Shown one piece after another: positions 3,192 through 35,125 of a stretch of 64,000 nucleotides of DNA. The stretch comes from Escherichia coli (lineage in GTDB: Bacteria > Pseudomonadota > Gammaproteobacteria > Enterobacterales > Enterobacteriaceae). Location: NCBI RefSeq assembly GCF_030013205.1, contig NZ_CP122648.1; one strand, 5' to 3'. Positions within the stretch are counted from its first letter, which is position 1. Every line of letters begins with the position of its first letter. Made by a program: the position numbers and the translations under genes. The notes beneath the pieces are model-generated. The model worked only from the letters and a program-made list of their open reading frames with translations. It searched no databases and was not told where the DNA came from.

Positions 3192-3216
3192 ATTGTTACC
3201 TTAGTGGGAGATTAGT

Positions 3217-3441
3217 ATGATTTCTGCTATTTTATCGGTGCTGCTAGCGTCATTATTCATCGGAGTGGTGTTGATCTCCCCGATGCCAATAATATCAATA
3301 TTATTCATCTTGATGATCGGCTGGTTGTGGCTTAAAAAGGCAAGAAACGATTATTTTTTATCCATAAGAGATAAGCAATTAGAGCTTTTCCGCTTGGGGT
3401 ACACTGGCGACTTGCCATTCTTAACATACCAAAAAAAGTAA
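3217..3441 (+). CDS. Small membrane protein (2 predicted TM helices), hypothetical
   Basis: 74 aa, hydrophobic N-terminal two thirds and basic tail; GGGAG RBS; followed by a terminator hairpin. Confidence 0.5.
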   Translation: MISAILSVLLASLFIGVVLISPMPIISILFILMIGWLWLKKARNDYFLSIRDKQLELFRLGYTGDLPFLTYQKK

Positions 3442-4056: not shown

Positions 4057-6321
4057 TTACTTCTGGTTATCATCACTGTTCATCCAGTACATGATGCCTA
4101 GCCTTGATATGGTTTTCTTATCTGATTCTGGAAGTGAGTTGTAAAACGAGCGCCAAGCAGAAGAGCGTCTTACAGTTGTATCAACGATGCTTTCTGGTGC
4201 TTGTTTTACTGCCAGCCTTGCTGCTTTCTGGAATTCTGGTGAGCTAATTAGCTTTTCTGCAGATTCAATTGATTCAGCGCCGCCCATCGCCCTGATTTTG
4301 CTGGCGACTTTTGCCCCAATTTCTGACCCAGCAACAGCACCTACTGCACTGAACGGTCCTGACACAGTTGAACCAACCGCAGTGCCAATGCGTTGGGCAT
4401 GGTTAGCAACAAATTCATTTGCCGCAGTGACGCGATTAAACCGTTTGACGAACTCGTTTAGTCTTCCTGTAGTTATCTCGTAAGATTTTGCGTCTTTGAT
4501 AGCCTTTGCGACCTTATATACATCGTTCAGACCTGACATAGTCTCTTTTGGTAAATGTCGGGCAAGATTGCGCATCTGCCCGTTTGCTAACATGTTTTGA
4601 TACCAGTCAGCAAACCCTGCAGGATTAAAATCAGCGCCACGTTTTCCGTTCGAAAGCATATCCCGAAGACCTGTTCCCAGTAGCTCGGTTCTTAGCTTCC
4701 TGGACGGCGTGTTTTGCATCAATTCACGAAATCCTTTGGCATCGCCTTTCGACATTGCCTGTAGTGCTGTAGTTGCTTTGCGAGAAACATCACCGTTCAG
4801 CGTTCTGCCAGTTAGATTAATCATTTGCTCTTCCATGCTTTTTCGCATCTGAACAAGCCTCTGAGCAACTTCAAAATCACGTAATGCATTTGTCTCTGAC
4901 AGCGCCGCCTTTTGATCATCGGCGAGCGAACCGTAAAGCCTCGATAAAGCAGCGCGATCAGCATCTTTATATGGTCCAGAATTCTTATGAAGTGCATCAC
5001 CAACAAGTCGTCGTTGCTTATTGAGATTTGCATAAGTTAATGCGCCGTTCTTGCCTGGATTAATTGCCCGAAAGACTCTCTTTTCAATAGGGTCAAGGTT
5101 TTTCATCCCGCCAAGATCTTCTGCCACCTGTTTGAGCATTGACCTTGTTGATGGCGCATCAATTTTTGCACCTGCAGGCATCGCCTTTTCAACATTGCGA
5201 TAAAGCTGGTCGCTTCGTTTCATCAGCGCAGACATTCTTCCATTGACCGTATCAATAAACTTGTCGCTCATACCAAGAGCATCTTTTGCACCGGAAACGC
5301 GATCAATTATCTCCCCCGCGCCCTGTGCTAGCTGCCTGATTGCTTCATTTTCCTGCACCTGTAGAGCAGAACCCGCACGGGACTTGATTGCTTGCTCAAC
5401 TGCCTTGTATTGCTCGTTCCCGGAAAAGTGTGAAGGGAGTAATGAATCAACATTAAGCCTTTCAGCAGACTCCAGAACTTCAGCCTGAGGATTGATATCT
5501 AGTTCATCAAGCGATGAAGCGAGATTTGGCCTTTTTTGTGCTGCTACTGTGCGAACGACTTCCTCTGGGTTCCTCGTCGCAGGAGTCATTGGTACACCTT
5601 GTGCTGCTCTTGCCTCTGCGGCATGAACCGCAGGATTTGTTGCCTCTGCGGCATCACCGGAGAATGGTGATGTTTCTGTTGGCGCAGTGGTCGCTCTCTG
5701 TGCAGATGTTTTATTGCCACTAATTATATTTGATGCACCACGAACACCACGGGTAACGCCATTTATCAGGCCATGCGTAGCAATGTTAAGTCCGGCATTA
5801 ATAGCGGCATTTTCGGCAAAATCACCCTCCTGATTTGCAGCATCAGCAAGAGAACCTGCAATCATGTTTCCTGCGGAACCGATGTCTCCTGCGAGCTTTG
5901 CTGGCGCTCCAGCAACTTTTGCCGCTGTGCCAATTGGCAGGAGATACCCACCAATTGTTTCACCGGCTTGCGCCCAAGGGTCTGTCGGTCGATCGACAGG
6001 GCGATAAACATCATCCAAAACCTTGGGGCCACCAAGCCCCTGGCTGATTGCATTAATCAGACTTGCGCCACCCTGCAATACGTCAAATGGTATGTTTACC
6101 AGACCACGACCAGCCTGTTCTGCAATTTGCCCTGCGCTTTGACCACCAGTGAGCCAGTCAGTAGCTTTTCCCACCAGAGATTGTTCTTCTGGCTGCGATT
6201 GGTTTTGAGTGGATTGATCACCAGAAGACAGCATCTGAGCAATGCGACGTGCTCCCTCAGTATCGCCGGCAGCATCAGCATTCCTTAACGCCGTCATCAA
6301 CTGTTCACGACTATAGGCCAT
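4057..6321 (-). CDS. DNA ejection/transfer protein (P22 gp16-like by synteny)
   Basis: 754-aa ORF directly downstream of the gp20-like gene; Gly/Ala-rich segments. Confidence 0.7.
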
Positions 6322-7706
6322 TACTGCTCTCCGAGATATTTGCTAATTAATTCGTCATCGGACAATTGCTGTTGAGGTTGGCTATCGCCATAACTTGAGG
6401 AAAGAAAACGTTTTGCCGCAGAGTTCAATGACTCACCCTTCTTAACATCCATCCCCATGATGTTTCGGTTGCGATCAGATTGTCCTGGGCTGCCATTTGC
6501 ACTCATCCACTCTGACTTAAACTCGTTGAACTTCGCGTTATTACTTTCCATTTTTGCCATACCCCTTAACCATCGAGCCATGACCATTGGATTATCCGTT
6601 TCGCTTGGAATGCCTTTCCTTGCAAACTCAATATCCTTATCTGATGCAGGGCCGGGAGGGAGAAGCTTGGTTGCCTGCGCATTGGCTAGTTGGTTGAATC
6701 TAATCCGCATATCTCGGAGGTAGTTATCTTGCCCCGTAAGCTTAGAGAACATATTTTCAGCGTTACCGAACAAACCAGGAGTTGGCTTCTCCTTCTCCAG
6801 CGTGTCAGCGAGCGTTGTCATTGAATCGGCAGCATTACGACTAGCTGCCGCATCACCTGCTGATTTTTCTATAGCCTTTTCCATGTTCACTGATAATTTT
6901 GGCGCTGCATTAATAAGTTTCTCGGCCTTTTTTTGTGCCTGTTGTACTTCAAAACCGAATTTCTGCTTATCAAGTGCCAGTCTTTCTGCTGCAAGTCCGT
7001 GTCCGGTCATTGCAGACTGATAGGAAAGGTTTTGCCCCCTAATAGCCCTCGCATTCGTCATGTCATTATTGCGAATGGTTTCGTTAATTCTTTGCTGTTC
7101 CTGCTGGCGACCAACCATCTTATCCTGAACAGCAAACGCCTTTTCTGGTCCAAGCGCACCGAGAGACATAGTAGTCAGCATGTGTGATAGCTGCTCTGGA
7201 TTCTGGATACCTGTCTGAATCATCCAGTCAGCATTAGCACCAACGCGATTTAACCTGTCCTTGTTGTCAGTAATGAATTTACTGTAGGCTTCCGGCCCCT
7301 GAGAAAGAGCGACGTTAGCTCTCATGGCTAAATCGCCCATATCGTTGCGTTGCTGATCATTAAGACCTGAAAAAGCCTGTTGTGCCTGTGCAACAAACGC
7401 TGGATTTTCCTGGGCAAACTTAAATAGTCCCGATGGATCACCAGAAGCCCATGCATCAGCGTGAACCTTATTGAACGCCCTAATCGCTTTCTGTTGCTGT
7501 TCCTGCTTATAAATATCAGCAACTCCAGCCAGACCACGTAACGCGGTCAGACTAACGTTATTTGCACCTGATCGAGACAGTTCATTGTTTTCGCGGATCA
7601 GACCAAGCGTTGCATTAATGTCGCTTGCCTTTGGCGCATTCTCGTTTTGCGCACCAATGCCAGCCAGAAAACCACCAGAATTAATACCCTGTTGCCACGT
7701 AGCCAT
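6321..7706 (-). CDS. DNA ejection/transfer protein (P22 gp20-like)
   Basis: 461 aa, the size of P22 gp20, in the gp7-gp20-gp16 order. Confidence 0.7.
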
Positions 7707-7716
7707 TGATTACCCC

Positions 7717-8409
7717 TTAAAACAGTGAACCAAGCAGACCAAGACCAGCACCGATACCAGCACCCCACGGAGTTGATAGCTCGAGAGCACTGGCTATGCC
7801 ACCACCCAAAAGCGCACCGGATGCAGCACCACTAACCCCCTGCTGCAATGCTGACGGTCGGTTGGCATTTGCCGCAGCCAGCGCCGCGCTTTGCTGTGAA
7901 ATCTGACTCATGTTGTTGGCATATGTTTGCCCGGCGTTTGCCTGCCCCTGAAGAGCGCCAAGACCGATATTTGCCAGGTTGTTGTAATTGTTCATTTGTC
8001 CAGATAGCCATTGCTGACCAAGCGTTGGTGCGATTGTTGCTAACTGATTACTGGTTGCGGTGGAACCCAATCCACCTGTTGCTTCCGCTGCCGCAAGACT
8101 CTGATAGCGAGCCTGACCTGAAAGGTCTTTATACTGCTGAGAGTTGTAATACTGGTTAAGTGCCTGACCTTGCCCTTCCAGAGACGATAAGTTCTCGAGG
8201 CTGCCGACATACTTATCAGCCAGAGGAGTAAACGGCTTCAGGTTGTTCATGATGGTGTTGAACTGCTGATTTTGCAGGTCTGCTGCATACTTCTGAGCTT
8301 CTGCGGCATACTTTGCACTTTTATCAGAACTGCCACCTTTCCCGCCTTTTTCAGGGCAATAAGGTTCCTCGCCGCGCAGTTTTCTGCCCAGCTTAAATGC
8401 ATATAACAT
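7717..8409 (-). CDS. DNA ejection/transfer protein (P22 gp7-like)
   Basis: 230 aa starting MLYAFKLGRKLRGEEP with a Gly-rich C-terminus, recalled as typical of P22-like gp7. Confidence 0.7.
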   Translation of the reverse strand: MLYAFKLGRKLRGEEPYCPEKGGKGGSSDKSAKYAAEAQKYAADLQNQQFNTIMNNLKPFTPLADKYVGSLENLSSLEGQGQALNQYYNSQQYKDLSGQARYQSLAAAEATGGLGSTATSNQLATIAPTLGQQWLSGQMNNYNNLANIGLGALQGQANAGQTYANNMSQISQQSAALAAANANRPSALQQGVSGAASGALLGGGIASALELSTPWGAGIGAGLGLLGSLF

Positions 8410-8411
8410 GG

Positions 8412-8870
8412 CTATCTCCCGTGCTTCAGGAAGTCGATTAGTTCTTCGCGTGTGGCGCTGTAAAACGTCACGTCATCCACGCCTTTGAAGTATTTCTTGA
8501 TGGTTCCTACACGCTTAAGGCCAATCATTGCGCAGTACATCTGCCCGTGGCGGAATTTGCGTGCAGCGAACGATGTGACGCACTGAACGGTGGTGTTAGT
8601 CAGAATGTATCGCCAGAACGCCAGCCCGATTTCCTTGCTGAAGCCGCGAATCTCTGGCAGGTACATGGCGTGGCAATCAAAGGTCAGCGGCTGAATCTCC
8701 TGATAGTAAACAATTCCGCCGAACTGCCCGTGCACGTTCACCTCAAAGTAACGGCATTCAGGCTTGTAGTCGTATCCATCGCCGTTGTTGCTCCCGGCGA
8801 TAATGTCAGGGTGATTTCCTACTGCTTCGATCAGGTCGATGTTTCGCGTTGGTTTGAAATGAATCATCAC
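8412..8870 (-). CDS. Phage protein between needle and ejection genes (gp14 position)
   Basis: 152-aa ORF, start overlapping the needle gene stop. Assignment is by synteny only. Confidence 0.5.
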
Positions 8871-9688
8871 TGCTCCGCGATTATCTTGATGGTTGTGGCA
8901 GTAAACGCCGCACCATTCGACTGAATGGTTAACGTGCTGCCATTTGTGGCAAGAAAGCCGTCTTTATCCACGCTGAAGAACGTAGCTAACAGGATGTTGT
9001 CGGTTGTTGTCGCTGAGTTGCGACTGCTTACCAGTGTGTCAGGAACAGAACCGGAAAATGTTAGCTGCATTGACCTGTTGGCGGTTCCGCTGGGCCACGT
9101 CCCGACGATCGACAGCTTGAAGAACAAGGTTTTGTTCTCGTTGAACACAACCATCTTGTTGTTAACGGTGTCGAAGAATGGTGCCAACGTGCCGGATGAC
9201 GGCGTGAGCGTTTTCAGCAGGCTAACAAGGTTGGTAGGCGCTGTCGGAATTGTTACCGATACCCCTGAGTAAACAACCTCTGATTTCTTGCGCGTGGTGG
9301 CATACTCAAGCGCAGATATTCTTGTTGCGTGATCACCAACTGTGCTTTGTAGCGTCGAAATACTTCCCTCTGCCGCTGTGAGCCTGGTATCAAGTGCGTC
9401 GATATCGGTTGTATTCTGAGTTATGCGCGCATCATGGTTTGCTAACTCAGATTCATTGGCAGCAATTCGCGTATCGTGATCAGCCAGCTCTGTTTCAGCA
9501 GCCGTAATCCTTGTTTCATGATCTGCAAGAGTGCTTTCCGCTGTTGCAATTCTATGTTCATGATTGATGAGAGTTGCTTCAGCAGCTTCAATTCTGGATT
9601 CATGGTCTGCAAGGGTGACATCCTGCTCATCGTTCCTAACCTGTGCATCATAAGCGCCCTGTCCGGCCTCGTTGGCTTTGTTAGCCAC
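8867..9688 (-). CDS. Tail needle (P22 gp26-like) with coiled-coil repeats and C-terminal knob
   Basis: GTG at 9688. [20 protein letters not shown] and ADHESRI heptads match recalled gp26. The frame stays open upstream to the coat stop, encoding [30 protein letters not shown] (gp26 N-domain-like) with no in-frame ATG. Confidence 0.75.
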
Positions 9689-9838
9689 GTTACCAACATC
9701 AGTGCCCTGTGCGATAACGTAAAGCAGATACGACTGCGAGAAGATATTGCGTGGAAGGACTGATGTGTCGAGCCGTGTAGAGCATTGTTCGTGCCATTGT
9801 CTTCTCCCAATAAAAATGGGGCCGAAGCCCCACCAAAA

Positions 9839-11092
9839 TTACTGCCCGGCAATAACGATGCCCGTATATTCAGGAACAAGTACAGAGCAACCGTACAGAG
9901 TGGTGAAACGCGCAGTGGTTACGCCTTTGATGTGGTCGAAGGCGTAAGACATGATCAGCGTAGCGCCCTGCTCGGTGGTTGCTGTCATTACCTGTGGACC
10001 CTGACCAGTCGGGAACGCCAGTTTGCCGTACATCAGCTCAACAGAACCATCAGCCCAGAACAGGTTGGCCGGTGCGGCATTCTTGTTGAGAATGGTGATT
10101 GCTGCGCTACTTGCCGCGTTAGCATCAACGTTTGCATATGGTCGGCTGGCGACATCCGCGTTGTCAGGCGGCAGAATTTTCGGGGAGATAGTTACTGTCG
10201 TTCCGCTTACTGCCAGAACGCGGAATACCTGCGGCTGCCCGGTGGTATCTTTGGTGATCTGGTGTACGGAATTAACCCCTGCAATGGTAAACGCATCGCC
10301 AACCTGCAAACCTTCAGCAGATACCGTAATGGTCCCCTGTCGGTTATCCACTGGCATATCGTTAGCATCTTTCGCTTCAACCTTGTGCGCAGGTGCTGCT
10401 GCCAGCGTAATGGAAGTTGCTGTACCCTTCGGAACACGACCAGAAATATCGGTCTTGTAGCTATCGAAGGACGCAACAGGAGGGATCTGCGCTTTTTCGT
10501 ATGCTGTCAGGGTTGCGCCCTGAGCATAGGCACGGTGACCAAGCTCGCCAGCAAGGTCTTTGTAGTTGAAGGGGTTCCAGAAAGAGCGACGATTGATACC
10601 CTGCGGTACACCAATCGCCGTCATGGTGGCATCAATACCTGCCGCACAGTTCCACAAATCACGGCCCTGTGTACCTGTGGTTGAGTCAGCCATCGTGATC
10701 ACGTTAGTAGCACGCTGCGTGACCATGGAAATCAGGTCCGAGTCAATCTGTGCAGCAAGGCGCATACCTGCGGCGCGACCAGCTTCAGTTTTATGTTCCG
10801 GGTCACGCATTTCACGCGCATCCAGAGTGTACAGAATGTTTTTCGGCTCCTTGAACACAGAAGGAACAAGGCGCTGAACCAGTGCTGTTGGCGTTTTGCT
10901 GCTGAGGTCGAGGCCTTCCTCAATGTTCATGTGGTAATGCTGCGGACGATACAGAACATCACCTGCTCGCTGCATTGCTGTATCACCGGGACGGAATTTT
11001 TTAGCGTTACGGGAAACTACGCAGGCGGCCTCAAAGCCTTCAACGTAGTTTTCGAACATGATTTCAAGGTCTTTTGCTAATTGGTTAGCCAT
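9839..11092 (-). CDS. Major capsid (coat) protein, P22 gp5-like
   Basis: 417 aa following scaffold; C-terminal region similar to recalled P22 coat. Confidence 0.8.
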   Translation of the reverse strand: MANQLAKDLEIMFENYVEGFEAACVVSRNAKKFRPGDTAMQRAGDVLYRPQHYHMNIEEGLDLSSKTPTALVQRLVPSVFKEPKNILYTLDAREMRDPEHKTEAGRAAGMRLAAQIDSDLISMVTQRATNVITMADSTTGTQGRDLWNCAAGIDATMTAIGVPQGINRRSFWNPFNYKDLAGELGHRAYAQGATLTAYEKAQIPPVASFDSYKTDISGRVPKGTATSITLAAAPAHKVEAKDANDMPVDNRQGTITVSAEGLQVGDAFTIAGVNSVHQITKDTTGQPQVFRVLAVSGTTVTISPKILPPDNADVASRPYANVDANAASSAAITILNKNAAPANLFWADGSVELMYGKLAFPTGQGPQVMTATTEQGATLIMSYAFDHIKGVTTARFTTLYGCSVLVPEYTGIVIAGQ

Positions 11093-11110: not shown

Positions 11111-12004
11111 TTATTTTTTTGCCTTTTTAGCGGCGAAATACGGCGTCCAGTCACCAGTTTCCAGCGCCTTGGCTTTCAGTTTGTCGAGGTTATTGATTAC
11201 TGCGCCGTTGCTCCCCTTAACTGTCGGGGTTGTGGCTGCCGTGGTTTTTGCTTTTGGCATGATTCTGGCCTTCGATTCGATACGTTCCAGCAGACGACCA
11301 ATTGCTACGGGGTTGGTAGCTTCTGCCAGTTGCTTGCGCAGTTCAGCGTTGCGACCGAGCGCCAGAACAACGATTTCCGGCTTCTCTGACTCAAACAGGA
11401 TCGCGTTTTGTGTCTCGATGGGGATTTCCTCGAGTACGGCCTGTTCTGCTTCCTGATAGCCAGGAACCTTGAGAGCCTTAACACGTTGCTGATATTTGGA
11501 TAATCGCTCTTGATAGGCAGCCTGAAGCTCCTGCTCCTTCTGCTTGCGAGCCATCTCCTGTTGCTGGTACTTGCCGTTATCCTCTGCCCACTTAGCCATG
11601 CGTTGCTGATAGATTTCTTCATCGAAACCGATGTCCTCATCATCCAGTTTTGGCATTCGCGGTGGTTGAGTGATTACCGGCTGCTGCTCGACAGGTTTCT
11701 GAGACTGACGCATCAGCTCTTTCAGCTCGCGGTCTTTCTCTTTAATCGTCTTGCGCAGGTGTTTTACCAGTCCATGCTCTGCGCTATCTTCACTGGTTGG
11801 CGAATCCAGCTTTTCGTCACCAAAGTAGAATTCCTGTTCTGATTCGTCGTCATCAGTTTCAGTAGCTTCCTCTGCATCATTGCCGGAGGACTCACTGCCA
11901 TCTTCTGTTTCGACTTCTTCAGCCAGTTCGACATCATCAGGAATCTGCTCTGATGTATCGGTTTCGATTTCAACTTCTGGTGTGTTTTCTGCCATCTGGT
12001 CCAT
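11111..12004 (-). CDS. Scaffolding protein
   Basis: 297 aa, highly acidic N-terminus, Lys/Glu-rich helical protein between portal and coat. Confidence 0.8.
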   Translation of the reverse strand: MDQMAENTPEVEIETDTSEQIPDDVELAEEVETEDGSESSGNDAEEATETDDDESEQEFYFGDEKLDSPTSEDSAEHGLVKHLRKTIKEKDRELKELMRQSQKPVEQQPVITQPPRMPKLDDEDIGFDEEIYQQRMAKWAEDNGKYQQQEMARKQKEQELQAAYQERLSKYQQRVKALKVPGYQEAEQAVLEEIPIETQNAILFESEKPEIVVLALGRNAELRKQLAEATNPVAIGRLLERIESKARIMPKAKTTAATTPTVKGSNGAVINNLDKLKAKALETGDWTPYFAAKKAKK

Positions 12005-12094
12005 TTGTTACCCCTGTTTACTCGATGTTCAGCCCATCGGAAGGCAATAGGGTGCCAGGCCTCATAAAGACAGCCATTGCACGTTATGGGTTAA

Positions 12095-14293
12095 TTACTG
12101 CTGTGGTTGTTGCTGAGTTGATTTTTGCAGGATGCTGCTGATGTCCATGCGCTGCGCATGGCCCTGTGCCTGACTTTTCAGGACAAGCTCTGCATCAGCA
12201 CGGGCATTGTCTCCTTGCTGTTGCTGGAACTGTCCGAGCAGTTTCAGCGCCTCACGGATATCAGATTTCTGCTGACTATCGGCAGATGCGAGTATTTTCA
12301 CAACATTTGCCGCTGCAACCTGAGCATCAGTCTGTGCCTGGAATGCTTTAACCTGAATGGCTGCCTGTTCGTTCTGCGCTTTCTGCAATTCAGCCTGACC
12401 AGCAAGAAGCTGACCTTGCGCTGCAACCATAGCCGGATCTGGCTGACTGGCCTGTTGTTGTTTCGCCTGTTCAACCATCTGCTGTTCTTCTGGCGTTCTC
12501 GGCTTGATAACTCCAGACAGAAGCAACTGATTGCGGTTGTATTCTTTAAGGTCGTCCATCCCTTCGCCGTCCATATTGTCGAGGATCATCGACGATACAA
12601 GGTCGTGTTTCGGCGTTCCGGGCGGGATAAGTGCCAGCATGGAAAGTAACGACTTAACCGTTGCATCACGGCGAGTAGCGAACGACTGACCAACATCGAC
12701 AGTCACTTCATAGTTACCCTGCGAAAGGTCGTTAAGCGCGATAACCTGCCCTGTCTGACGGTCAACCACTTCACCAGTCATCAGCGCCACGTCATCGCTG
12801 CCGTCCTCATTAACGATACGCATCGGCGTATCACTGCCATAGACCTCACGCGCCATAGAAAGCCACACAACGCCAGCGCGACGCATGGATTTAGCCATGT
12901 TGTCCATGTAGATATAGGACTGCGTGTCCATCCGGTTAAAAATGCTATCAACGGTATCGGTGGCGACGTTGCTCGGCATGTTCTCAAGCTGCGACGCACC
13001 TGTAATTTGCTGAATAGCCGTTCCGGTGTACTGCAATAGCCCGGCAAGAGCTGGAGGCATTTGTGTCGGAGGCGTATAACTGCTGACCTGAGCCTGCGCA
13101 GTAATATCTCCGTTTTTGTTTTTCAGACTGACCATCGGCAGGAACGCCGGGCGCTTTTTGTTGCGCTCCGCCCAATGAGTGGCGAGAGGACCAGGAATCA
13201 TGTCAACATCAACTACAGGAATGCCATCACCGCCAGCCTGAGTAGCGTTATCTGCAATCATGGAAACCATCAGGTTCTCAAGACGCTGTGCATCCATCGC
13301 TTTTGCTGCGTGACCTTCGATTCGCTCCTGATTATCAACAAATGATCGACGCCCATATACCGGGATGAGAGGAATATGTTCGCCCGGAATACGCTTCGGT
13401 TCTTCCAGCCATTCAGCGCCAGACAGAAGACCGCAATAAACGCGGCGCTTCTTCACCGTTCGCTCGCCAATCAGTTCGAATGCACCATCGGTCAGCTCGT
13501 CGACAATATCTTTGATTTGCTCTTCATCATAAATTGCCGTTTCTCCGCTAACAGGGTTGCGCCACGCCGTGAGCTTCACCTTCTCTATGCGAACTTCGTA
13601 GTAGCGTCCAACATAGATGGCATCGGGCGTTGACCAGTCATACTGAGTACCAGTGTCATCACGAGAAAGGCTTGCTGCGATGGAATCAGGGTATTCAGCC
13701 TCGAACGCTTTGGGCGTCATGGAGAACATTTCCATAGCCCACATAGCATCAGAGCGGTCATATTGCTTGCTGTCCTGATCGAAGAAGACGCATGTCGCTG
13801 GGTCGTAAACAGGAAGAAGGCTGATGCGTCGCTGCTCGTTACTCGGATCCATTTCATCTTCGTAATCGGCACACATGCGGAAACAACCGAATCCGCCCGT
13901 TACAGCATCATCAAATGCGTTATCACACGCTTCACCACCGGATGTTTCCTGATAGTCAGCGCGGAATTTACCATTCATCTTTTCGGCTAACGCTTCCGAT
14001 GCCTTATCGTCCTTCGGCCTGAATTTAACGCTGATGCGATTCTGTCGATACTCGCCAATGATGCGATCACATTCACGGGCAATCTTATTCAGTTCAAAGC
14101 GCGGGTAATGCTCAAACCTGCCTTCATCAAATGAGTAACCAGCGTTTGTGCTGCCTTCCCACTGTGCGCCGGATACCCGGACGAAACGTTGAGCCTCAAT
14201 AATCTGCTCACGCATATCCTGCGTTGCTGACCAGGCATTATCAAAGTTGCACAGCACCTTGCGATGCCAGTCAGTCATCTTTTTTTCTGCCAT
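12095..14293 (-). CDS. Portal protein, P22 gp1-like
   Basis: 732 aa; C-terminal PRTPEEQQMVEQAKQQQASQPDPAMVAAQGQLLAGQAELQKAQNEQ closely resembles the recalled P22 portal barrel region. Confidence 0.9.
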   Translation of the reverse strand: MAEKKMTDWHRKVLCNFDNAWSATQDMREQIIEAQRFVRVSGAQWEGSTNAGYSFDEGRFEHYPRFELNKIARECDRIIGEYRQNRISVKFRPKDDKASEALAEKMNGKFRADYQETSGGEACDNAFDDAVTGGFGCFRMCADYEDEMDPSNEQRRISLLPVYDPATCVFFDQDSKQYDRSDAMWAMEMFSMTPKAFEAEYPDSIAASLSRDDTGTQYDWSTPDAIYVGRYYEVRIEKVKLTAWRNPVSGETAIYDEEQIKDIVDELTDGAFELIGERTVKKRRVYCGLLSGAEWLEEPKRIPGEHIPLIPVYGRRSFVDNQERIEGHAAKAMDAQRLENLMVSMIADNATQAGGDGIPVVDVDMIPGPLATHWAERNKKRPAFLPMVSLKNKNGDITAQAQVSSYTPPTQMPPALAGLLQYTGTAIQQITGASQLENMPSNVATDTVDSIFNRMDTQSYIYMDNMAKSMRRAGVVWLSMAREVYGSDTPMRIVNEDGSDDVALMTGEVVDRQTGQVIALNDLSQGNYEVTVDVGQSFATRRDATVKSLLSMLALIPPGTPKHDLVSSMILDNMDGEGMDDLKEYNRNQLLLSGVIKPRTPEEQQMVEQAKQQQASQPDPAMVAAQGQLLAGQAELQKAQNEQAAIQVKAFQAQTDAQVAAANVVKILASADSQQKSDIREALKLLGQFQQQQGDNARADAELVLKSQAQGHAQRMDISSILQKSTQQQPQQ

Positions 14294-14294
14294 A

Positions 14295-15710
14295 TCAACC
14301 TACACCACAAGGAATTGAGTAACTGGAATAGTCGGGTTGCGCAGCCGACTCTGGGCAATGCATACACATCATCAGCGCATCAGCCAGGTTAGGAGATGGA
14401 ATACCGAGCTTCTGCTTCATTTCGACCTTAGTCATAAGCTCCAGCTTCCCGTTGTTATTGAATTTGCGCTGAATCTGCGTCAGTTCTGCAAACAGCTTCT
14501 CCAGCATCTTCTCGCCTATCGCTTCTTTGTCAAAACTCAGCATGTCGTCGGGGTCCGCATACTCACCGTGAACAACCGCCCGATATGTCAGATACAGCCT
14601 GTCAGCCAGCGCGTAATAGAATTGCGCTCGCTTATTGCGGAATACATCGCCAATAGTGCGAACGTTGTCGCCCTGTACGGCTTCATCAGCCCATGCTCCG
14701 GCCTGATAAGGCGAATCTTCATCAAATGGCGATTCGCTGCCCTTGAACATCGTGGCGGTGATTTTCTTACCGGAGAACGCTTCCGCTGTCTGTCTGCGTA
14801 GACCTGCACCAACACCATCACCATCCCACAGGTAATGGTCAGCGCCGTCTTCAATAGCCAGCGAAGTAGCCCAGTCAGCACCCTCGTTGATGTCCATCAG
14901 CAGGCCTTCGGCAATGCGCTTAACAACCGAACCGTGACGCGATGCATAACCTTTAGCATCTGGCCCTGTATCTGATGGGTCATGTGCAGAAACAACCGCG
15001 CCTTTCGCTTTCCATCCGAGTTTCTTGTGCGCATCGGTTGCGGCTTCAAGCCATTCACGTTTGATGATTGCCATATCACTTGCGCTTACTGGCTCACCAA
15101 GCCAGATGTGACGATACAGTGTCTGATTTCTGCGTTTACACTCTTCCATCTCCAGACGGAGAACTTCAGGAAAATGCGGGTTGTCGGTGTAGTTCACCGT
15201 CAGCAGGCAAATATCATCGGGAGGATTTACAACGAATCGCTGATAGGTATCGTCGAGGATGTTCTTCGGGTTAAAGCTCACCCATATTTCGGAAAACGGC
15301 TTGCGGATGGTTGGTATCAGGATGTCCCATGATTCCTTTGTTACCGCTTCCGCTTCTTCCACCCAGCAGATATCAATGCCTTCTAGCGATTTAATCTTCG
15401 TTGGGTTGTTTTTTATGCCGTAGAACATGAATTCAGCATTCGTTCCGAGATGACGAATCATTGAACGCTGAATTTCAAACTCAGCCGAATACCCTTCACG
15501 CTCGATGGTGTCTTCAAGCAACCGGATTACCGAATCGCTGATACTGTTTTGCAGTTCACGAGCGCAGAGAATACGCACAGGCTGCCGACGCGCCGCTTCA
15601 ACAAGCAGCCTCGCAATTGCCCATGACTTACCGCTACCTCGACCGCCTTTGGCGACTTTGTAGCGATGCGCCTCAATGAACGGTTCAAAGATAGGATTAA
15701 TCGAGGTCAT
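14295..15710 (-). CDS. Terminase large subunit
   Basis: 471 aa with Walker A-like KGGRGSGKS near the N-terminus; sits between terS and portal. Confidence 0.9.
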   Translation of the reverse strand: MTSINPIFEPFIEAHRYKVAKGGRGSGKSWAIARLLVEAARRQPVRILCARELQNSISDSVIRLLEDTIEREGYSAEFEIQRSMIRHLGTNAEFMFYGIKNNPTKIKSLEGIDICWVEEAEAVTKESWDILIPTIRKPFSEIWVSFNPKNILDDTYQRFVVNPPDDICLLTVNYTDNPHFPEVLRLEMEECKRRNQTLYRHIWLGEPVSASDMAIIKREWLEAATDAHKKLGWKAKGAVVSAHDPSDTGPDAKGYASRHGSVVKRIAEGLLMDINEGADWATSLAIEDGADHYLWDGDGVGAGLRRQTAEAFSGKKITATMFKGSESPFDEDSPYQAGAWADEAVQGDNVRTIGDVFRNKRAQFYYALADRLYLTYRAVVHGEYADPDDMLSFDKEAIGEKMLEKLFAELTQIQRKFNNNGKLELMTKVEMKQKLGIPSPNLADALMMCMHCPESAAQPDYSSYSIPCGVG

Positions 15711-16147
15711 TTTCCGAATAGAGTGCTCATCGGTGATGTTTCAATCTGAATTGCGCCGCCGTCTTTGCCTGTTAGCTCGTGATCAACCTTGTCGCGCCAT
15801 TTATCCTTCTGTCGGTTCTTAAGCCAGAAGATGGCAGCGGTTGTATCAGGCGGGTAATACTTCTCAAGCGGAGTTTCGACAATTCTGTTTTCAATAACAC
15901 GAATATCGATGTCTGGAGCCACGAAGCCCATAGCGCGTTGATAAAGACGATCACTAACTTCTGCATCAGCGACGGCCTTACCCTTTTTTATGGACTCCGA
16001 AAACTTAGGATAATCAATCTTCCACTTGTTAATAGTTGACTCACTGACTTCAAAGAAATCAGCAAGTTCTGCATCGGTGTAGCCCAGCAAGCACAGTTTG
16101 CGTGCCTGTTCGGCATACGCCTCTTGATACTTTGTTGGGCGCGCCAT
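15707..16147 (-). CDS. Terminase small subunit
   Basis: 146 aa with N-terminal HTH-like region, overlapping the terL start. Confidence 0.8.
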   Translation of the reverse strand: MARPTKYQEAYAEQARKLCLLGYTDAELADFFEVSESTINKWKIDYPKFSESIKKGKAVADAEVSDRLYQRAMGFVAPDIDIRVIENRIVETPLEKYYPPDTTAAIFWLKNRQKDKWRDKVDHELTGKDGGAIQIETSPMSTLFGK

Positions 16148-17267: not shown

Positions 17268-17480
17268 TGCGTCCTGATGTACTCCTGCAGGTAGTTAACC
17301 TGCGCGGTTATCCTGTCGATTCCACTTCGGAGACGGTAATAATTGAGTTCAGCATCTGCTGTAAGTCTTGGGCTTTCTCCATCGCCCATGCCGCTGGCTC
17401 TGGTCGTTGACTTTGCACAGGTGGCGGCGACTTGCAGGCGCTTACGACCAGCAGAAACATCAGCACGGAGACTTTCGATA
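17255..17480 (-). pseudogene. Rz: Rz (i-spanin) remnant, C-terminal part only
   Basis: ESLRADVSAGRKRLQVAATCAKSTTRASGMGDGESPRLTADAELNYYRLRSGIDRITAQVNYLQEYIRTQCLR aligns with the recalled lambda Rz C-terminus. The upstream part of the ORF has no Rz-like TM/N-terminal region and overlaps xis antisense. Confidence 0.65.
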
Positions 17481-17499
17481 TCGAAGCAGAGGACATCAA
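17308..17499 (-). CDS. Rz1: Rz1-like o-spanin lipoprotein, embedded in Rz frame +1
   Basis: Signal peptide with lipobox (LLVVSAC) followed by a proline-rich segment KSPPPVQSQRPEPAAW; the true start may be an internal Met. Confidence 0.65.
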   Translation of the reverse strand: MMSSASISKVSVLMFLLVVSACKSPPPVQSQRPEPAAWAMEKAQDLQQMLNSIITVSEVESTG

Positions 17500-17587: not shown

Positions 17588-17608
17588 ACCGCCTGATGGC
17601 GGTTTTTT
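17588..17608 (+). terminator. Terminator-like hairpin upstream of xis
   Basis: ACCGCC-TGAT-GGCGGT followed by TTTTTT. Confidence 0.4.
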
Positions 17609-17635: not shown

Positions 17636-17854
17636 ATGTACTTGACACTTCAGGAGTGGAACGCACGCCAGCGGCGCCCAAGAAGCCTTGAAACAGTTCG
17701 TCGATGGGTACGCGAGTGCAGGATATTCCCTCCTCCGGTTAAGGATGGAAGAGAGTATCTGTTCCACGAATCAGCGGTAAAGGTTGACTTAAATCGACCA
17801 ATAACAGGTAGCCTTTTGAAGAGGATCGGAAATGGGAAGAAGGCGAAGTCATGA
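17636..17854 (+). CDS. xis: Excisionase, lambda Xis-type
   Basis: 72 aa, MYLTLQEWNARQRRPRSLETVRRWVRECRIFPPPVKDGREYLFHESAVKVDLNRPITGSLLKRIGNGKKAKS matches recalled lambda Xis; overlaps the int start. Confidence 0.93.
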   Translation: MYLTLQEWNARQRRPRSLETVRRWVRECRIFPPPVKDGREYLFHESAVKVDLNRPITGSLLKRIGNGKKAKS

Positions 17855-18902
17855 GCGCCGGGATTTACCCCCTAACCTTTATATAAGAAACAATGGATAT
17901 TACTGCTACAGGGACCCAAGGACGGGTAAAGAGTTTGGATTAGGCCGAGACAGGCGAATCGCAATCACTGAAGCTATACAGGCCAACATTGAGTTATTTT
18001 CAGGACACAAACACAAGCCTCTGACAGCGAGAATCAACAGTGATAATTCTGTTACGTTACATTCATGGCTTGATCGCTACGAAAAAATCCTCGCCAGCAG
18101 AGGAATCAAGCAGAAGACACTCATAAATTACATGAGCAAAATTAAAGCAATAAGGAGGGGGCTACCTGATGTTCCACTTGAAGACATCACCACAAAAGAA
18201 ATTGCGGCAATGCTCAATGGATACATAGACGAGGGCAAGGCGGCGTCAGCCAAGTTAATCAGATCAACACTGAGCGATGCATTCCGAGAGGCAATAGCTG
18301 AAGGCCATATAACAATAAACCCGGTCGCTGCCACTCGCGCTGCAAAATCAGAGGTAAGGAGATCAAGACTTACGGCTGACGAATACCTGAAAATTTATCA
18401 AGCAGCAGAATCATCACCATGTTGGCTCAGACTTGCAATGGAACTGGCTGTTGTTACCGGGCAGCGAGTTGGTGATTTATGCGAAATGAAGTGGTCTGAT
18501 ATCGTAGATGGATATCTTTATGTCGAGCAAAGCAAAACAGGTGTAAAAATTGCCATCCCTACAACATTGCATGTTGATGCTCTCGGGATATCAATGAAGG
18601 AAACACTTGATAAATGCAAAGAGATTCTTGGCGGAGAAACCATAATTGCATCTACTCGTCGTGAACCGCTTTCATCCGGCACAGTATCAAGGTATTTTAT
18701 GCGCGCACGAAAAGCATCAGGTCTTTCCTTCGAAGGGGATCCGCCCACCTTTCACGAGTTGCGCAGTTTGTCTGCAAGACTCTATGAGAAGCAGATAAGC
18801 GATAAGTTTGCTCAACATCTTCTCGGGCATAAGTCGGACACCATGGCATCACAGTATCGTGACGACAGAGGCAGGGAGTGGGACAAAATTGAAATCAAAT
18901 AA
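17832..18902 (+). CDS. int: Tyrosine integrase, lambda Int-type
   Basis: 356 aa, near-identical to recalled lambda Int from MGRRRSHERRDLPPNLYIRNNGYYCYRDPRTGKEFGLGRDRRIA to HLLGHKSDTMASQYRDDRGREWDKIEIK. Confidence 0.95.
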   Translation: MGRRRSHERRDLPPNLYIRNNGYYCYRDPRTGKEFGLGRDRRIAITEAIQANIELFSGHKHKPLTARINSDNSVTLHSWLDRYEKILASRGIKQKTLINYMSKIKAIRRGLPDVPLEDITTKEIAAMLNGYIDEGKAASAKLIRSTLSDAFREAIAEGHITINPVAATRAAKSEVRRSRLTADEYLKIYQAAESSPCWLRLAMELAVVTGQRVGDLCEMKWSDIVDGYLYVEQSKTGVKIAIPTTLHVDALGISMKETLDKCKEILGGETIIASTRREPLSSGTVSRYFMRARKASGLSFEGDPPTFHELRSLSARLYEKQISDKFAQHLLGHKSDTMASQYRDDRGREWDKIEIK

Positions 18903-20391: not shown

Positions 20392-22651
20392 ACATCTGAC
20401 GGTTTTTATTGAAGTTAATCAAACTACCCGCCTTGATAATCTCGCGCTCTTCGGCCGTCAGGCTTTCCATGTAAAGCGTAATTTCCGTTACCGGCGCATC
20501 TTCATGGATCACATAACCTTTAAACGTCGTACCCGGATTATCCAACGCTGCTTTAATGCCAGGGATGTAAATGTAATCCCCCACTTCAAACGTTGGTGCT
20601 TCCGCCATTTGCAGCGGTAACATCCCCCAGTTGATGACGTTAGAACGGTAGCGTTTAGTCGCGTATTCCTCGGCAATATTCGCCAGACCGCCAATCACAC
20701 GCTGGCAGCTCGCCGCCTGCTCACGCGCAGAACCATCGCCTGGTTTCACCGCATAGACCATGCTGCCAATTTCAGTTTGCAGCGGATCAATATGCTCCTG
20801 ACCAGCAATCTGCTTAATGCGCGCAAACACCTCTGTCAGCTCACTGACATTCCCCGCCAGACGCTGATTTTCCAGTTCAGCAGTCGCTTTACTTCTGCCA
20901 ACATAACCTGGATCGCGGCGTGACAGGGTAAACTCCGCCAGACCAATCGGATTTGAACGATAAGAAGAGGTTTCACCGGAAGGAATCAGTTCGTCGGTGG
21001 TGGTCACTTCGTCGAGGATCTTCGAGCACACTTTGAGGACGATATTGTCAGTCAGCGCACCCAATTCCGGCCAGTCTTTAATGTTCGGTCCGTAAATCAG
21101 CGGTTGCTGGGTCGCCCCTTTCACAAAGCCCTGATAAACACGGTTTTTATACGGCGTTACATCGAAGGCGTACTCCGGCACGTTGTCCCAGCAATCCAGC
21201 TCGCTGGCAGAGGTTAAATAGCCACCGTTTGCCGCAGTCGCAGCGATGGAACGAGCGTCCATCAACGCCACTGCTGACATCTGCCCATTGGCTGGCTTAG
21301 AGCCTTCGCGGTTCGGGAAGTTACGCGTGGTGTGGCGAATACTCAAACCGTTGTTGATTGGCGTATCGCCCGCGCCAAAGCATGGGCCGCAGAACGCGGT
21401 TCTGATGATTGCGCCTGCGCCAATCAAATCTGCTACCACGCCTTTTTTGGCTAAATCCATAAACACCGGCTGTGATGACGGGTAAACCGCCAGCGAGAAG
21501 GTGTCATTGCCACAGGATTGACCGCGCAGTGCATTCGCCGCCGCGATGACGTTTTCGTAGTTACCGCCAGAACAGCCCGCGATAATCCCCTGCTGCACTT
21601 TCAGGCGACCATTTTCCACTTTATCCAGCAGCGAGAGTTTGGCTTTACCGTGTGCCACGCGTTCGGACTCAATTTCAATCTCACGCAGAATGTCGGTCAG
21701 GTTCTGGCTCAGCGTGTCGATTTCATACACGTTGCTCGGGTGAAACGGCAGCGCAATCATTGGCTTGATGGCGCTTAAATCAACGCTGATGCAGCCATCG
21801 TAGTACGCCATCGGTTGAGGGTTAAGCTGGCAGTAATCCTGGCCGCGACCGTGCAGCGCCAGCCAGTTATGGACTTCTTCATCGGTTTGCCAGACAGAAC
21901 TTAAACAGGTCGTTTCAGTGGTCATAACGTCAACGCTGTTACGGAAATCGGTAGAGAGCGCAGCAACACCGGGACCTACGAATTCCATCACTTTGTTTTT
22001 GACGTAGCCGTTTTTGAACACGGCACCGATGATAGCCAGCTCCACATCCTGTGGCCCCACATACGGCGCAGGTTTTCCGGTCAAATGCACCGCAACCACG
22101 CCCGGATAGTCGATATCCCAGGTGTCATTAAGCAGCTGTTTTACCAACTCGCCGCCGCCCTCACCGACTGCCATTGTCCCTAATGCACCGTAACGGGTGT
22201 GGCTGTCTGACCCGAGGATCATTTTGCCGCCGCCTGCCATCATCTCACGCATATATTGATGGATGACCGCAATATGCGGAGGCACAAAAATACCGCCATA
22301 ACGCTGAGCCGCCGATAAACCAAAAACATGGTCATCACCGTTAATGGTGCCGCCGACGGCGCAAAGTGAGTTATGGCAGTTGGTCAGCACATACGGCAGC
22401 GGGAAACGTTCCATACCGGACGCTTTAGCGGTCTGTACAATACCAACAAAGGTAATATCGTGAGAGGCTAATGAATCAAACTTAATTTTAAGTTTATCCA
22501 TATTTCCGGACGTATTATGAGAAGAGAGAATAGACCAGGCAATAGTGCCTTTTTTTGCTTCTTCTTTTTTAATTTCGCCGGTGAAATGTTCTTCGGCAAT
22601 TATTTCGTTATTACTGGCGAGAAACACGCCTTTTTCAGATAACTTGATCAT
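20390..22651 (-). CDS. ybhJ: Aconitase-family hydratase YbhJ
   Basis: Aconitase-like 4Fe-4S cluster motifs ([15 protein letters not shown]); the K-12-length product (753 aa) starts at MIKLSEKG, 8 codons inside the track ORF. Confidence 0.9.
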
Positions 22652-22833
22652 CAAATGCTCCAGATATCTGCGCACCGAGAAGTGCGCAGAAAGATAATAA
22701 ATGGATATACTCTAAATAATTAGAGTTGCAGGAAGGCGACTAGCGAGTGAATCCCCAGGCGCTTACATAAGTAAGTGACTGGGGTGAGCGAACGCAGACG
22801 CAGCACATGCAACTTGAAGTATGACGAGTATAT

Positions 22834-24267
22834 TTACAGCATGTTCCAGCCGATCAGCATATTCCACCACCACACGCCGAGGGTGATATGCACCAGGAAG
22901 GTTAATATCGTCAGTACCGCACCGACCAACCACCAGGATTTAATATCGTTATAACCCACGCCAAAGATGACCGGACCTGCCGCGCCGCCATAGTGAGTAA
23001 CCATGCCGCCATAGGAGTTGGAGAACAACAGTGCCAGCGCGGTTAACATTAACGGTGCGCCGGAGACGTTCGCCAGCATGGCAAATACCGGTAACATAGC
23101 AACGATATAGGCACTACCGGAAGCGAAGAAATAACGAACGATGATGCTGAGGAAAATAATAACGAAGAAAGCAACGTTACCGTGACCATCAAATGCCAGG
23201 TTATTTTTAAAGACTTCAGCTAACCATTCGAAGAATTTAACTTTCGATAATAAGGAGCTTAAGCCGATAATACCGCCGTACCAGATTAAGGTATTCCAGC
23301 CGCCTTTATTTTTAACCACGTCTTCCCAGGTAACGATACCCAGCAGCAGCATGGTCGCCATAACAACGATTGCCACGGTGGATTCATCAACCCCCAGGGA
23401 CTTACTGAAAATCCAGCCCAGCAGCGCCAACACAAAGACACCGAGCAGCATTTTTTCGCGGATTTTCATCGGTCCCAGTTCGGCAAGGCCCGCTTTGGCG
23501 ATGGTTTTATTATCCACCTTCTTAATTTCTGGCGGATACATGGTGTAAATCACCAGCGGGGTGACCAGCAGCATAATGATGCCCGGCAATCCGGCGGCCA
23601 GCGCCCATCCACCCCAGCTAATTTGCAGGTGCAGAATGTCGTTGATCATTTTCAGCGCCAGAATGTTCCCCGCCATTGCGGTAAAGAACATATAGCTGGT
23701 GGTTTTGGTGACCATGTAAATGGACATCATCAGGTAATGTCCAACACGACGCGGACTTTTTTCCGGTTCTGACCCCAAAGCCACCGCCACGCTGTTGATG
23801 ATCGGTAACACAATGCCGCCCGCACGCGCGGTGTTAGACGGTGTTGCCGGAGCCAGTACCAGATCGAGGAATACCGTAACGTAACCCAGACCCAGCGTGG
23901 TGTTACCGATTTTACCAATCAGCAGATAGGCAATACGTTTACCTAAGCCGGTGGTCACAAATGCGGCGCTTAAGGTAAACGCCGAGAACACCAGCCAGGT
24001 GGTACCTGAAGAGTAACCGCTTAATACGGCGGTGGTCTTAAACGCACCGTCGGATAAGTTACCGACCACCACCATTGAGGCAGCAACGGCAATTAACAGT
24101 ACGACAGGTTCCGGGAAAGGCTTGATAACCAGCCCCACAATGGCCGCCAGGTAAATACCAAAAAGCACCCACGCCAGTTCGCTTAATCCTGCCGGAGCTG
24201 GCATAAAGCCAATAATACATGGGATCGCTAATATCAGAATTAGCTTCCATAACGATTTTTTATTCAT
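22834..24267 (-). CDS. ybhI: DASS-family anion transporter YbhI
   Basis: 477-aa polytopic membrane protein; K-12 synteny. Confidence 0.9.
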   Translation of the reverse strand: MNKKSLWKLILILAIPCIIGFMPAPAGLSELAWVLFGIYLAAIVGLVIKPFPEPVVLLIAVAASMVVVGNLSDGAFKTTAVLSGYSSGTTWLVFSAFTLSAAFVTTGLGKRIAYLLIGKIGNTTLGLGYVTVFLDLVLAPATPSNTARAGGIVLPIINSVAVALGSEPEKSPRRVGHYLMMSIYMVTKTTSYMFFTAMAGNILALKMINDILHLQISWGGWALAAGLPGIIMLLVTPLVIYTMYPPEIKKVDNKTIAKAGLAELGPMKIREKMLLGVFVLALLGWIFSKSLGVDESTVAIVVMATMLLLGIVTWEDVVKNKGGWNTLIWYGGIIGLSSLLSKVKFFEWLAEVFKNNLAFDGHGNVAFFVIIFLSIIVRYFFASGSAYIVAMLPVFAMLANVSGAPLMLTALALLFSNSYGGMVTHYGGAAGPVIFGVGYNDIKSWWLVGAVLTILTFLVHITLGVWWWNMLIGWNML

Positions 24268-24342
24268 TTAAAATCCTGTTCTTTCTGTATGACTCATACA
24301 GAAGTCCTTTATTGATTGTCCTTATCCTGACAACGAATTTTT

Positions 24343-25395
24343 TCAGGGAAGAAAAACTTCACCGGAAAATATTTTTCTGGTTGTCCGAATAACAGATGCG
24401 CGTAACGTCGTGGCATCCTGACCTTCATTACTTAAATGAACGTCGAGCGCACCACTGGGGTGTTCAATATTGATATTGCCGTATCCTACAGAAGGGACGA
24501 TTTGTCGGGTGACGGTGCCTTCCAATGCACAACTACTGGAAATGGCAATAGCACCGGTTATCGCCAGCGCGCGATGGCAAGAATGCGGCATAAAATAACG
24601 CACATTAATTGCTCCGCCTTTCTGCGCTGGAGAAATAAGCACAGGTTTAGGGATAACCATATTACTGACATCGCCTAAGCCCATTGCTTTACCCGCTTGT
24701 AGACGGATAGATTCAATGCGGGCTAATAATGCTTTGTCGGCATCCAGCTCCGCCGGTAATTCATAGCCTGTTTTTCCCAGATATTCAGCAGGAATAATGA
24801 CAACTGGCATCGCCATATCGATACAAGTCACCGGGACATCGTCAAAATAATCAATCTGATTATCAGTCGGGAAGATTTTTCCGGTTTTGGTTCCGGCGGC
24901 ATTCAGGAAAGTGAGCGCAACCGGTGCGGCAGTACCCGGTACGCCGTCAATTCTGGCGCTACCCTCGTACTCGACAACACCATTTGGCGTTTGCACATCA
25001 GCTTCGATGAACGTACCCGTATTGACGTTGCGGATACGTACGCGGGTTACTGGCGAAGTCGCTGCAATCAAACCATTTTCAATGGCGAATGCCCCAACCC
25101 CAGACAACATATTGCCGCAGTTTGGTGTTGTATCGACACGCTGCTCATGGACAATAACCTGAGCAAACAGATAATCGACATCAGCACGCGGATCGTCGGA
25201 ATGGCTAATAATGGCGACTTTACTGGTCAGCGGATTACCGCCGCCAATACCGTCAATTTCCAGATCGTTACCGGAACCCATAATTGCCATCAATATTTTA
25301 TCGCGCTGCGTTTGATCTTCGGGTAGATGTTCCGCTAACAGGAACGCGCCCCTCGAGGTTCCACCTCGCATCATCACGCAGGGTATTTTTTTCAT
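24343..25395 (-). CDS. ybhH: PrpF-family isomerase YbhH
   Basis: 350 aa; K-12 synteny. Confidence 0.9.
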   Translation of the reverse strand: MKKIPCVMMRGGTSRGAFLLAEHLPEDQTQRDKILMAIMGSGNDLEIDGIGGGNPLTSKVAIISHSDDPRADVDYLFAQVIVHEQRVDTTPNCGNMLSGVGAFAIENGLIAATSPVTRVRIRNVNTGTFIEADVQTPNGVVEYEGSARIDGVPGTAAPVALTFLNAAGTKTGKIFPTDNQIDYFDDVPVTCIDMAMPVVIIPAEYLGKTGYELPAELDADKALLARIESIRLQAGKAMGLGDVSNMVIPKPVLISPAQKGGAINVRYFMPHSCHRALAITGAIAISSSCALEGTVTRQIVPSVGYGNINIEHPSGALDVHLSNEGQDATTLRASVIRTTRKIFSGEVFLP

Positions 25396-25578
25396 AATAA
25401 TGCCCTCAATTTAAAAACATAACTTATTGCGATATGGTTACATTAAGGGCAAAGCATCTCTAATGACTTTAGCTCAACGATTAATAACATTTTTTCATTA
25501 ATTTAAGTTGGCTAAATGCAGTTAAAATTTTTAACGGCCAGCCACCCAAAATCGACGCTTCCATTTTCCGGAGTAATA

Positions 25579-26532: not shown

Positions 26533-26572
26533 TACACCGGCGCAGAAGAGACTGCGCCGGGTAAATCAGCGG

Positions 26573-27604
<1,032 letters not shown>

Positions 27605-27722
27605 CTAAAATTAGTCGCTTTTGGCGGTGAATGCTGAATTAAAACGCAGAATTTTGTCCGATAGTGGTATCGGTGTACCATTCGCGCAGAAGAAAATTCT
27701 TAACCTTAATCTGGAATACGCC

Positions 27723-29600: not shown

Positions 29601-29602
29601 GA

Positions 29603-31065: not shown

Positions 31066-31078
31066 TGGTAACCCCTTA

Positions 31079-31108
31079 ATGTAACGTTATGTAGGCGTCA
31101 ATATAACG
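31079..31108. promoter_or_regulatory. ModE operator at the modA promoter
   Basis: ATGTAACGTTATGTAGGCGTCAATATAACG contains the recalled CGTTATATTG...TACATAACGTTACAT operator (reverse complement) just upstream of modA. Confidence 0.6.
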
Positions 31109-31230
31109 GCTAACTCAGAATTTTCCCAGCAGTTATTGCTAACCTTTGTGAGGTAGATGAGAAAAAATATCGGCAGGAAAAGCAGGAAGTTGAGCAAAAG
31201 AAATGCCCGACTAAGCGGGCATTCAGGGAA

Positions 31231-31398
<168 letters not shown>

Positions 31399-31508
31399 TC
31401 ATGAGACTATTCTAACCGCTAAGCACAGAAAAGCACTCCCCTTTTGTGCGGTCAGCTTTGCGTGGCGTTCGTTTTCCGTCACAATAAGACTTTTGCCAGG
31501 ACATTGTT

Positions 31509-32297: not shown

Positions 32298-32364
32298 GCG
32301 TGTTGACAATTTGTTATGAAACACGTATCCCTGTCAGTAATCGCTGCACAAAATGGGATATAAA

Positions 32365-35116: not shown

Positions 35117-35125
35117 GGAACGACC

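Follow-up and report, generated by a model that had tools for sequence, protein, structure and literature searches.

A 2,081-bp deletion at a 3-bp microhomology as the probable cause of the missing tail adaptor and hub genes in a defective P22-like prophage of Escherichia coli ETEC4079

The tail body of P22-like phages is composed of twelve gp4 and six gp10 subunits, and the hub recruits the tailspikes (PMC3741392, PMC9728967). The N-terminal hairpin of the tail needle plugs the channel of the hub, and the packaged DNA leaks out when this channel is unplugged (PMC3741392, PMC9728967). In phage Huey and in the prophage of E. coli HS, the genes concerned are arranged in the order coat, 62-codon ORF, adaptor (gp4-like), hub (gp10-like) and needle. 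The window, i.e., the whole stretch of E. coli DNA analysed here (64,000 nucleotides), contains a join between the coat and needle genes, and the same gene order and gene types flank this position in prophage HS1 of E. coli HS (NC_009800.1, 315.7–322.5 kb), Huey, Gally and Sf6. The likeness extends to the coat and scaffold, both of Sf6 type, and to the needle, whose coiled coil is long and whose knob is likewise of Sf6 type. Across 4.7 kb spanning the join, the DNA is 97.9% identical to that of HS1. However, HS1, Huey, Gally and Sf6 carry the 62-codon ORF, gp4, gp10 and a complete needle gene, whereas the window is without the 2,081 bp in question.

The prophage and its relatives

Positions 1–29900 of the window match the E. 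coli ETEC4079 chromosome (NZ_CP122643.1) with 100% identity; the strain is from pig faeces in Belgium, and a literature search found no paper on it. A P22-like (Lederbergvirus) prophage occupies the lambda attachment site, with ybhC on one side, ybhB/bioA on the other and the structural genes on the minus strand. After int and xis, the minus-strand order begins with a junction and a fragment of Rz and proceeds through small terminase, large terminase, portal and scaffold to coat. Past the coat–needle join, it continues with needle, gp14-like, gp7-like, gp20-like and gp16-like genes and then with the immunity-I genes; last comes the tailspike, which extends beyond position 1 of the window. The genes outside the join and the junction beside xis are as follows.

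17832–18902, plus strand: int (annotation), the same integrase protein as in ETEC1701
17636–17854, plus strand: xis (annotation), beside ybhC at the left prophage end at the lambda attachment site
17479–17483, no strand: the other private junction, at which the C-terminal part of a 55-codon ORF beside xis is joined to mid-Rz
15707–16147, minus strand: small terminase, open and full length (ORF list, annotation)
14295–15710, minus strand: large terminase, open and full length (ORF list, annotation)
12095–14293, minus strand: portal, open and full length (ORF list, annotation)
11111–12004, minus strand: scaffold, open and full length (ORF list, annotation)
9839–11092, minus strand: coat (major head protein), 417 aa, intact, the final complete gene before the join (ORF list; phrog_283, E 4e-121)
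8412–8870, minus strand: gp14-like gene, open and full length (ORF list)
7717–8409, minus strand: gp7-like gene, open and full length (ORF list)
6321–7706, minus strand: gp20-like gene, open and full length (ORF list)
4057–6321, minus strand: gp16-like gene, open and full length (ORF list)

The upstream head-module block (11111–16147, minus strand) is contiguous and is found with 96–98% identity in approximately 350 E. coli genomes. The 7.7-kb head module, bounded by Rz′ and nt 20 of the small ORF, occurs once in ETEC4079; duplication of the module from elsewhere in the genome was thereby rejected. The coat gene has 98.4% nucleotide identity to that of Huey, and its RefSeq label is P22 major capsid family protein. 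The downstream genes (4057–8870) match the head morphogenesis, DNA ejection and DNA transfer families of PHROGs, with lengths equal to those in HS and ETEC1701, and the remaining structural ORFs also have the lengths found in intact relatives. According to the annotation, the element has no repressor, replication, antiterminator, holin or endolysin genes. A known attachment site, an integrase and host-gene flanks combined with the loss of essential lytic genes characterize it as a defective (cryptic) prophage.

The annotation of the gp16-like ejection protein gene (4057–6321, minus strand) differs from its sequence. The gene is open over 754 codons and contains a transglycosylase region (PHROG 770 and 21143), and RefSeq annotates just the internal piece 5074–6189, calling it a pseudogene 'missing N- and C-terminus'. 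The discrepancy looks like an annotation inconsistency and not a true defect.

An intact P22-like prophage of approximately 42 kb occupies the same lambda attachment site in the sister strain ETEC1701 (NZ_CP122938.1). The integrase, gp14-like, gp7-like and antirepressor proteins are shared between the two elements, and the DNA identity is 99.4–99.8% from needle nt 41 to the tailspike. ETEC1701 retains the early, lysis, gp4 and gp10 genes that are missing from the window, whereas its terminase-to-coat module belongs to a different type. Two patches of the window, 6189–7108 (gp20 C-terminus and gp16 N-terminus) and 3194–3433 (near the immunity-I genes), had no ETEC1701 match at the megablast level; judged from these alignments, they are most probably mosaic exchanges between the sister prophages.

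The coat–needle join and the missing segment

The coat stop codon TAA is at 9841–9839, and needle homology begins at 9780, 58 bp further on. The original prediction had placed the two approximately 50 bp apart and had estimated the missing DNA at roughly 1.9 kb; the close spacing was borne out, and the size of the loss is corrected to 2,081 bp. The coat stop is followed by a terminator-like hairpin, then by the ribosome-binding site GGGAGAAG and by ATGGCACGAAC with an ATG at 9797–9795. The hairpin is native to the intact relatives, and the identical sequence follows the coat gene in Huey. The features of this region are given below.

9815–9834, minus strand: terminator-like hairpin GGTGGGGCTTCGGCCCCATT and T-run, directly past the coat stop (terminator scan)
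9778–9797, minus strand: first 20 nt (ATGGCACGAACAATGCTCTA) of the 62-codon ORF (alignment with Huey CDS0006 and HS ECHS_RS01560)
9778–9780, minus strand: probable deletion junction with the 3-bp microhomology CTA (BLAST pieces against the HS prophage; junction alignments)
9699–9797, minus strand: chimeric 32-codon ORF with its stop at 9701–9699 (translation)
8867–9817, minus strand: RefSeq CDS 'tail needle knob protein' WP_282843021.1, 316 aa, ATT start (annotation)
8867–9780, minus strand: tail-needle remnant of Sf6/HS1 type with C-terminal knob; residues 14–318 kept, own start codon and codons 1–13 gone
8867–9688, minus strand: 273-aa ORF from GTG, the longest in the needle frame to have a canonical start (ORF list); it would begin at needle residue 45, without the N-terminal plug hairpin

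The endpoints were located by comparison with the HS prophage. The BLAST pieces end at window position 9778 and resume at 9780, which correspond to HS locus positions 3323 and 5402, and the CTA at 9778–9780 is common to both parental sequences. Relative to HS, 2,081 bp are absent, from nt 21 of the 62-codon ORF to nt 40 of the needle gene. The segment comprises nt 21–189 of the small ORF, the whole of gp4 (adaptor), the whole of gp10 (tail hub) and needle codons 1–13. The adaptor gene (P22 gp4 / Sf6 gp7), which sits downstream of the coat gene in Huey, Gally, HS and ETEC1701, is missing here, and the tail hub gene (P22 gp10 / Sf6 gp8) is missing from the element. The tblastn searches of the 64-kb window with the HS proteins returned no homologue, the best E-values being at chance level (0.011 for gp4 and 0.21 for gp10). 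The gp10 DNA is 93–96% conserved among the relatives, so a copy in the window would have been detected. Thus, the claimed absence of gp4 and gp10 between coat and needle holds across the whole window. It had been considered that the two genes might stand elsewhere in the same element, and none was found there; the genome otherwise has a gp10 ORF and no complete gp4.

The two sides of the join differ in their closest relatives. Up to window position 9778, the left flank (coat and 20 nt of the small ORF) shares 98.4–98.5% identity with Huey and HS. For the right flank, from 9780 (needle nt 41), the values are 97.3% with HS and 99.8% with ETEC1701. A 2.7-kb query against the phage collection was split at the same place: up to 9778, it matched the coat and downstream 'hypothetical protein' genes of Huey (98.4%), Kapi1, Sf101 and CUS-3, and from 9780 on, it matched the needle, gp14 and gp7 genes of Gally (97.2%), JEP4, Sf6 and HK620. 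No near-identical undeleted parent was found among the sequenced genomes, the best collinear relative being E. coli HS at 97.9%. Because the closest relatives of the two flanks are different, the ancestor would have to have been mosaic, and we infer from the alignments that it was a mosaic collinear with these relatives.

The reading frames around the join agree with the original prediction, as judged by the translations and the ORF list. The needle frame equals the coat frame and is stop-free between the coat TAA and the needle codons. No in-frame ATG is present in the needle frame; the sole ATG (ATGGCACGAAC, 9797–9795) lies one base upstream of that frame, and the earliest canonical in-frame start is the GTG at 9688. 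The proposals made to account for this arrangement fared differently. An extra frameshift is unnecessary because the missing segment ends in two different genes, which puts the ATG and the needle in different frames. With its ribosome-binding site GGGAGAAG, the ATG at 9797 starts a different gene, namely the 62-codon ORF, and a single 2,081-bp event explains everything. Unusual initiation is not supported either, since the ATG belongs to the small ORF and the needle has lost its own. The suspected homopolymer error also failed: no homopolymer occurs at the junction, just the 3-bp CTA, and the frame offset follows from the endpoints. The chimeric 32-codon ORF that results consists of seven codons of the small ORF and needle DNA read out of frame, and it had no PHROG family match.

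The HS needle protein aligns to the window over residues 14–318 with 97.7% identity (tblastn). The family phrog_1219 was matched from profile position 15; positions 1–14 are missing, so the conserved N-terminal plug hairpin is incomplete. The coiled-coil shaft and the Sf6-type C-terminal knob are present (phrog_1030 needle knob, E 1e-128), and the remnant is 99.8% identical in nucleotides to the ETEC1701 needle from nt 41 onward. The first 13 residues of WP_282843021.1 derive from the terminator and small-ORF leader sequences and have no homology to the needle. Its ATT 'start' (9817–9815) falls within the coat terminator stem, without a properly spaced ribosome-binding site, and it was possible to annotate only because the needle frame happens to equal the coat frame, with no stop between them. 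This CDS looks like an annotation artefact, and WP_282843021.1 is best handled as a pseudogene fragment.

Distribution of the join and the remnant at argW

The 251-bp junction is complete in 1 of 5,426 complete E. coli genomes, namely ETEC4079 itself, and the two flanks were adjacent in none of 50,697 phage records. Hence, the arrangement is not conserved among related sequences. With the 4.7-kb query around the junction, approximately 256 E. coli genomes gave two pieces with about 2.06–2.09 kb extra between them (best match HS, 97.9%). The missing 2,081-bp segment is present in 924 E. coli genomes, and ETEC4079 is not among the best 60 of the 928 records that match it. The intact state is abundant, and the deleted state is private to ETEC4079; on these counts, chance does not account for the pattern.

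The junction beside xis (17479–17483) was likewise found in 1 of 5,426 genomes. The deletion at this place took all early, immunity, replication and antitermination genes and most lysis genes. The loss of gp4 and gp10 comes in addition to this join of the xis-side ORF to Rz, and the element therefore carries a second deletion, as had been suggested.

A second locus was detected when a 450-nt gp10 probe was appended to the single-copy 7.7-kb anchor, by which the number of places in ETEC4079 rose from one to two. This locus is a KplE1/CPS-53-type P22-like remnant at argW (NZ_CP122643.1, approximately 1.5825–1.5955 Mb; extract 22500–35600). It starts with torI, a small-ORF fragment, a junction, a joined hyp′–small terminase′ segment and another junction. 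These are followed by a 102-nt piece of gp4, a gp10 gene that is open over 472 codons, a NUMOD4/HNH endonuclease gene and a truncated needle of 126 codons. An acyltransferase fragment comes next, and the end of the remnant contains a tailspike cut by IS1, gtr genes and intS. The argW tailspike is interrupted by IS1 in ETEC4079 and intact in ETEC1701.

The two remnants resemble each other in being P22-like and in having been shrunk by several illegitimate deletions with 2–3 bp microhomology. They differ in content: the argW remnant keeps an open gp10 and the needle 5′ end, which were lost at the lambda site, whereas it lost the large terminase-to-coat genes, which were kept there. The argW remnant is also older than the lambda-site damage, being shared with ETEC1701 and having a junction that occurs in 17 genomes; as ETEC1701 has it, it predates the gp4/gp10 deletion. 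Complete gp4 was found at neither P22-like remnant of ETEC4079, the argW locus having only the 102-nt piece, so both together still do not make a full tail set. Reciprocal translocation of gp4 and gp10 to argW was considered and rejected: the boundaries do not match, needle nt 41–378 are present at both loci, and ETEC1701 has the argW remnant plus an intact lambda-site prophage. By analogy with other ETEC strains, the second P22-like locus had been expected at 3.21–3.26 Mb, where only core genes are present.

Several observations concern the 55-codon ORF beside xis. An argW remnant junction in ETEC4079 (NZ_CP122643.1, approximately 1,582,897; extract 22897–22899) breaks the same ORF after ...CTTCGATA, at most 1 nt from the cut at 17479–17483. 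The partners of the two breakpoints differ, being Rz in the lambda-site element and an ORF upstream of small terminase in the argW remnant. Approximately 2,180 E. coli genomes have the ORF unbroken, and 17 have the argW-type junction. The shared breakpoint may be a hotspot or may reflect a common history. In the K-12 MG1655 record NZ_CP025268.1, the ORF has a 96% match at 806,610–806,852, where a hypothetical protein is annotated close to the bio region. ETEC1701 (extract 10092–10527) has a 435-bp stretch with a 345-bp ORF (WP_021557655.1) between the small ORF and xis; this stretch is absent at window 17605–17608, where the arrangement resembles that of the argW remnant.

Origin of the join and its consequences

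The join is very probably the scar of one illegitimate, microhomology-mediated deletion within an already defective P22-like prophage. The ancestor would have carried coat, the 62-codon ORF, gp4, gp10 and needle in normal order. Joining at the shared CTA would then have cut out the 2,081 bp from small-ORF nt 21 to needle nt 40. As a consequence, the element has neither adaptor nor hub, and the needle gene is without its start codon and first 13 residues, which are part of the hub-plugging hairpin. The ATG of the small ORF now reads seven codons of its own and then out-of-frame needle DNA before a stop after 32 codons, and the needle remnant is probably not made in useful amounts. At both junctions, the phage genes retain their order and direction, the outcome expected of simple deletions. 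The remaining genes are open and both junctions are unique to the strain, which argues that the damage is recent.

A replacement in one step would lead to the same structure by another route. An ETEC1701-like resident would have lost approximately 31 kb, from the small gene by xis to needle nt 40, and gained in the same event, through two illegitimate joins, a 7.7-kb piece of another P22-like phage whose ends lie in mid-Rz and at nt 20 of the small ORF. The intact ETEC1701 prophage is suited to this role, since it has the same site and integrase, outer arms with 99.4–99.8% identity and a different head module; moreover, the limits of the foreign-type segment coincide exactly with the two private junctions. 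However, the normal order and orientation at both joins are what simple deletions in a collinear mosaic ancestor predict, and the same combination of head module and needle is intact in approximately 256 genomes. The right arm differs from ETEC1701 in the patches at 6189–7108 and 3194–3433 and is not a direct derivative of it, and two deletions occur more often than a double illegitimate exchange. Such a replacement is considered unlikely, and it would change nothing in the outcome, with gp4 and gp10 absent and the needle truncated either way. The structure could also be an artefact, in which gp4 and gp10 are really present and the region was collapsed by the assembler, possibly confused by the second chromosomal locus with its homology to gp10 and the needle 5′ end. 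Mis-joins at repeats occur within long shared sequence, whereas the identity here is 3 bp and the left side is unique in the genome. The argW copy is just 96% identical over 163 bp, and the record is a finished circular RefSeq chromosome; an assembly error is hence regarded as highly improbable.

The opposite possibility, that a functional needle is still made, whether from ATT 9817, through ribosomes reading past the coat TAA or through a programmed frameshift after initiation at ATG 9797, has the frame open back through the coat stop and the RefSeq ATT start in its favour. The 32-codon ORF also has a strong ribosome-binding site, and 11 nt separate its end from the in-frame GTG 9688 downstream; weak reinitiation there is conceivable, although it would yield a needle without the plug. 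Against this stand the occurrence of the arrangement in one genome, with nothing conserved by selection, the position of the ATT within a terminator stem and its want of a properly spaced ribosome-binding site. The conserved plug-hairpin residues 1–13 are gone, the hub partner is absent from the element and the late promoter region is deleted, and a functional needle is accordingly the least credible of these readings. Two broader ideas share a very small joint probability, below that of a one-step replacement. Deletions in the P22-like remnants of ETEC4079 might be non-random, owing to a preferred break site or an active prophage-disabling mechanism of which the gp4/gp10 deletion would be one more product; or, less likely than this, a truncated needle-knob protein made by reinitiation at GTG 9688 might be retained for a host function.

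The preferred reading is thus ordinary, recent decay of a prophage, in which a deletion arose at a short microhomology; events of this kind are well known, and the significance beyond annotation is small. With the adaptor, the hub, the first 13 needle residues and the late-operon control region missing, the element is predicted to be incapable of building tails or stable filled heads. The ETEC4079 prophage would therefore be unable to yield infectious or stable DNA-filled particles, which is relevant where ETEC prophages are scored 'intact'. Owing to the intact sister prophage in ETEC1701, the locus provides a clean, datable example of stepwise prophage decay through deletions at short microhomologies.
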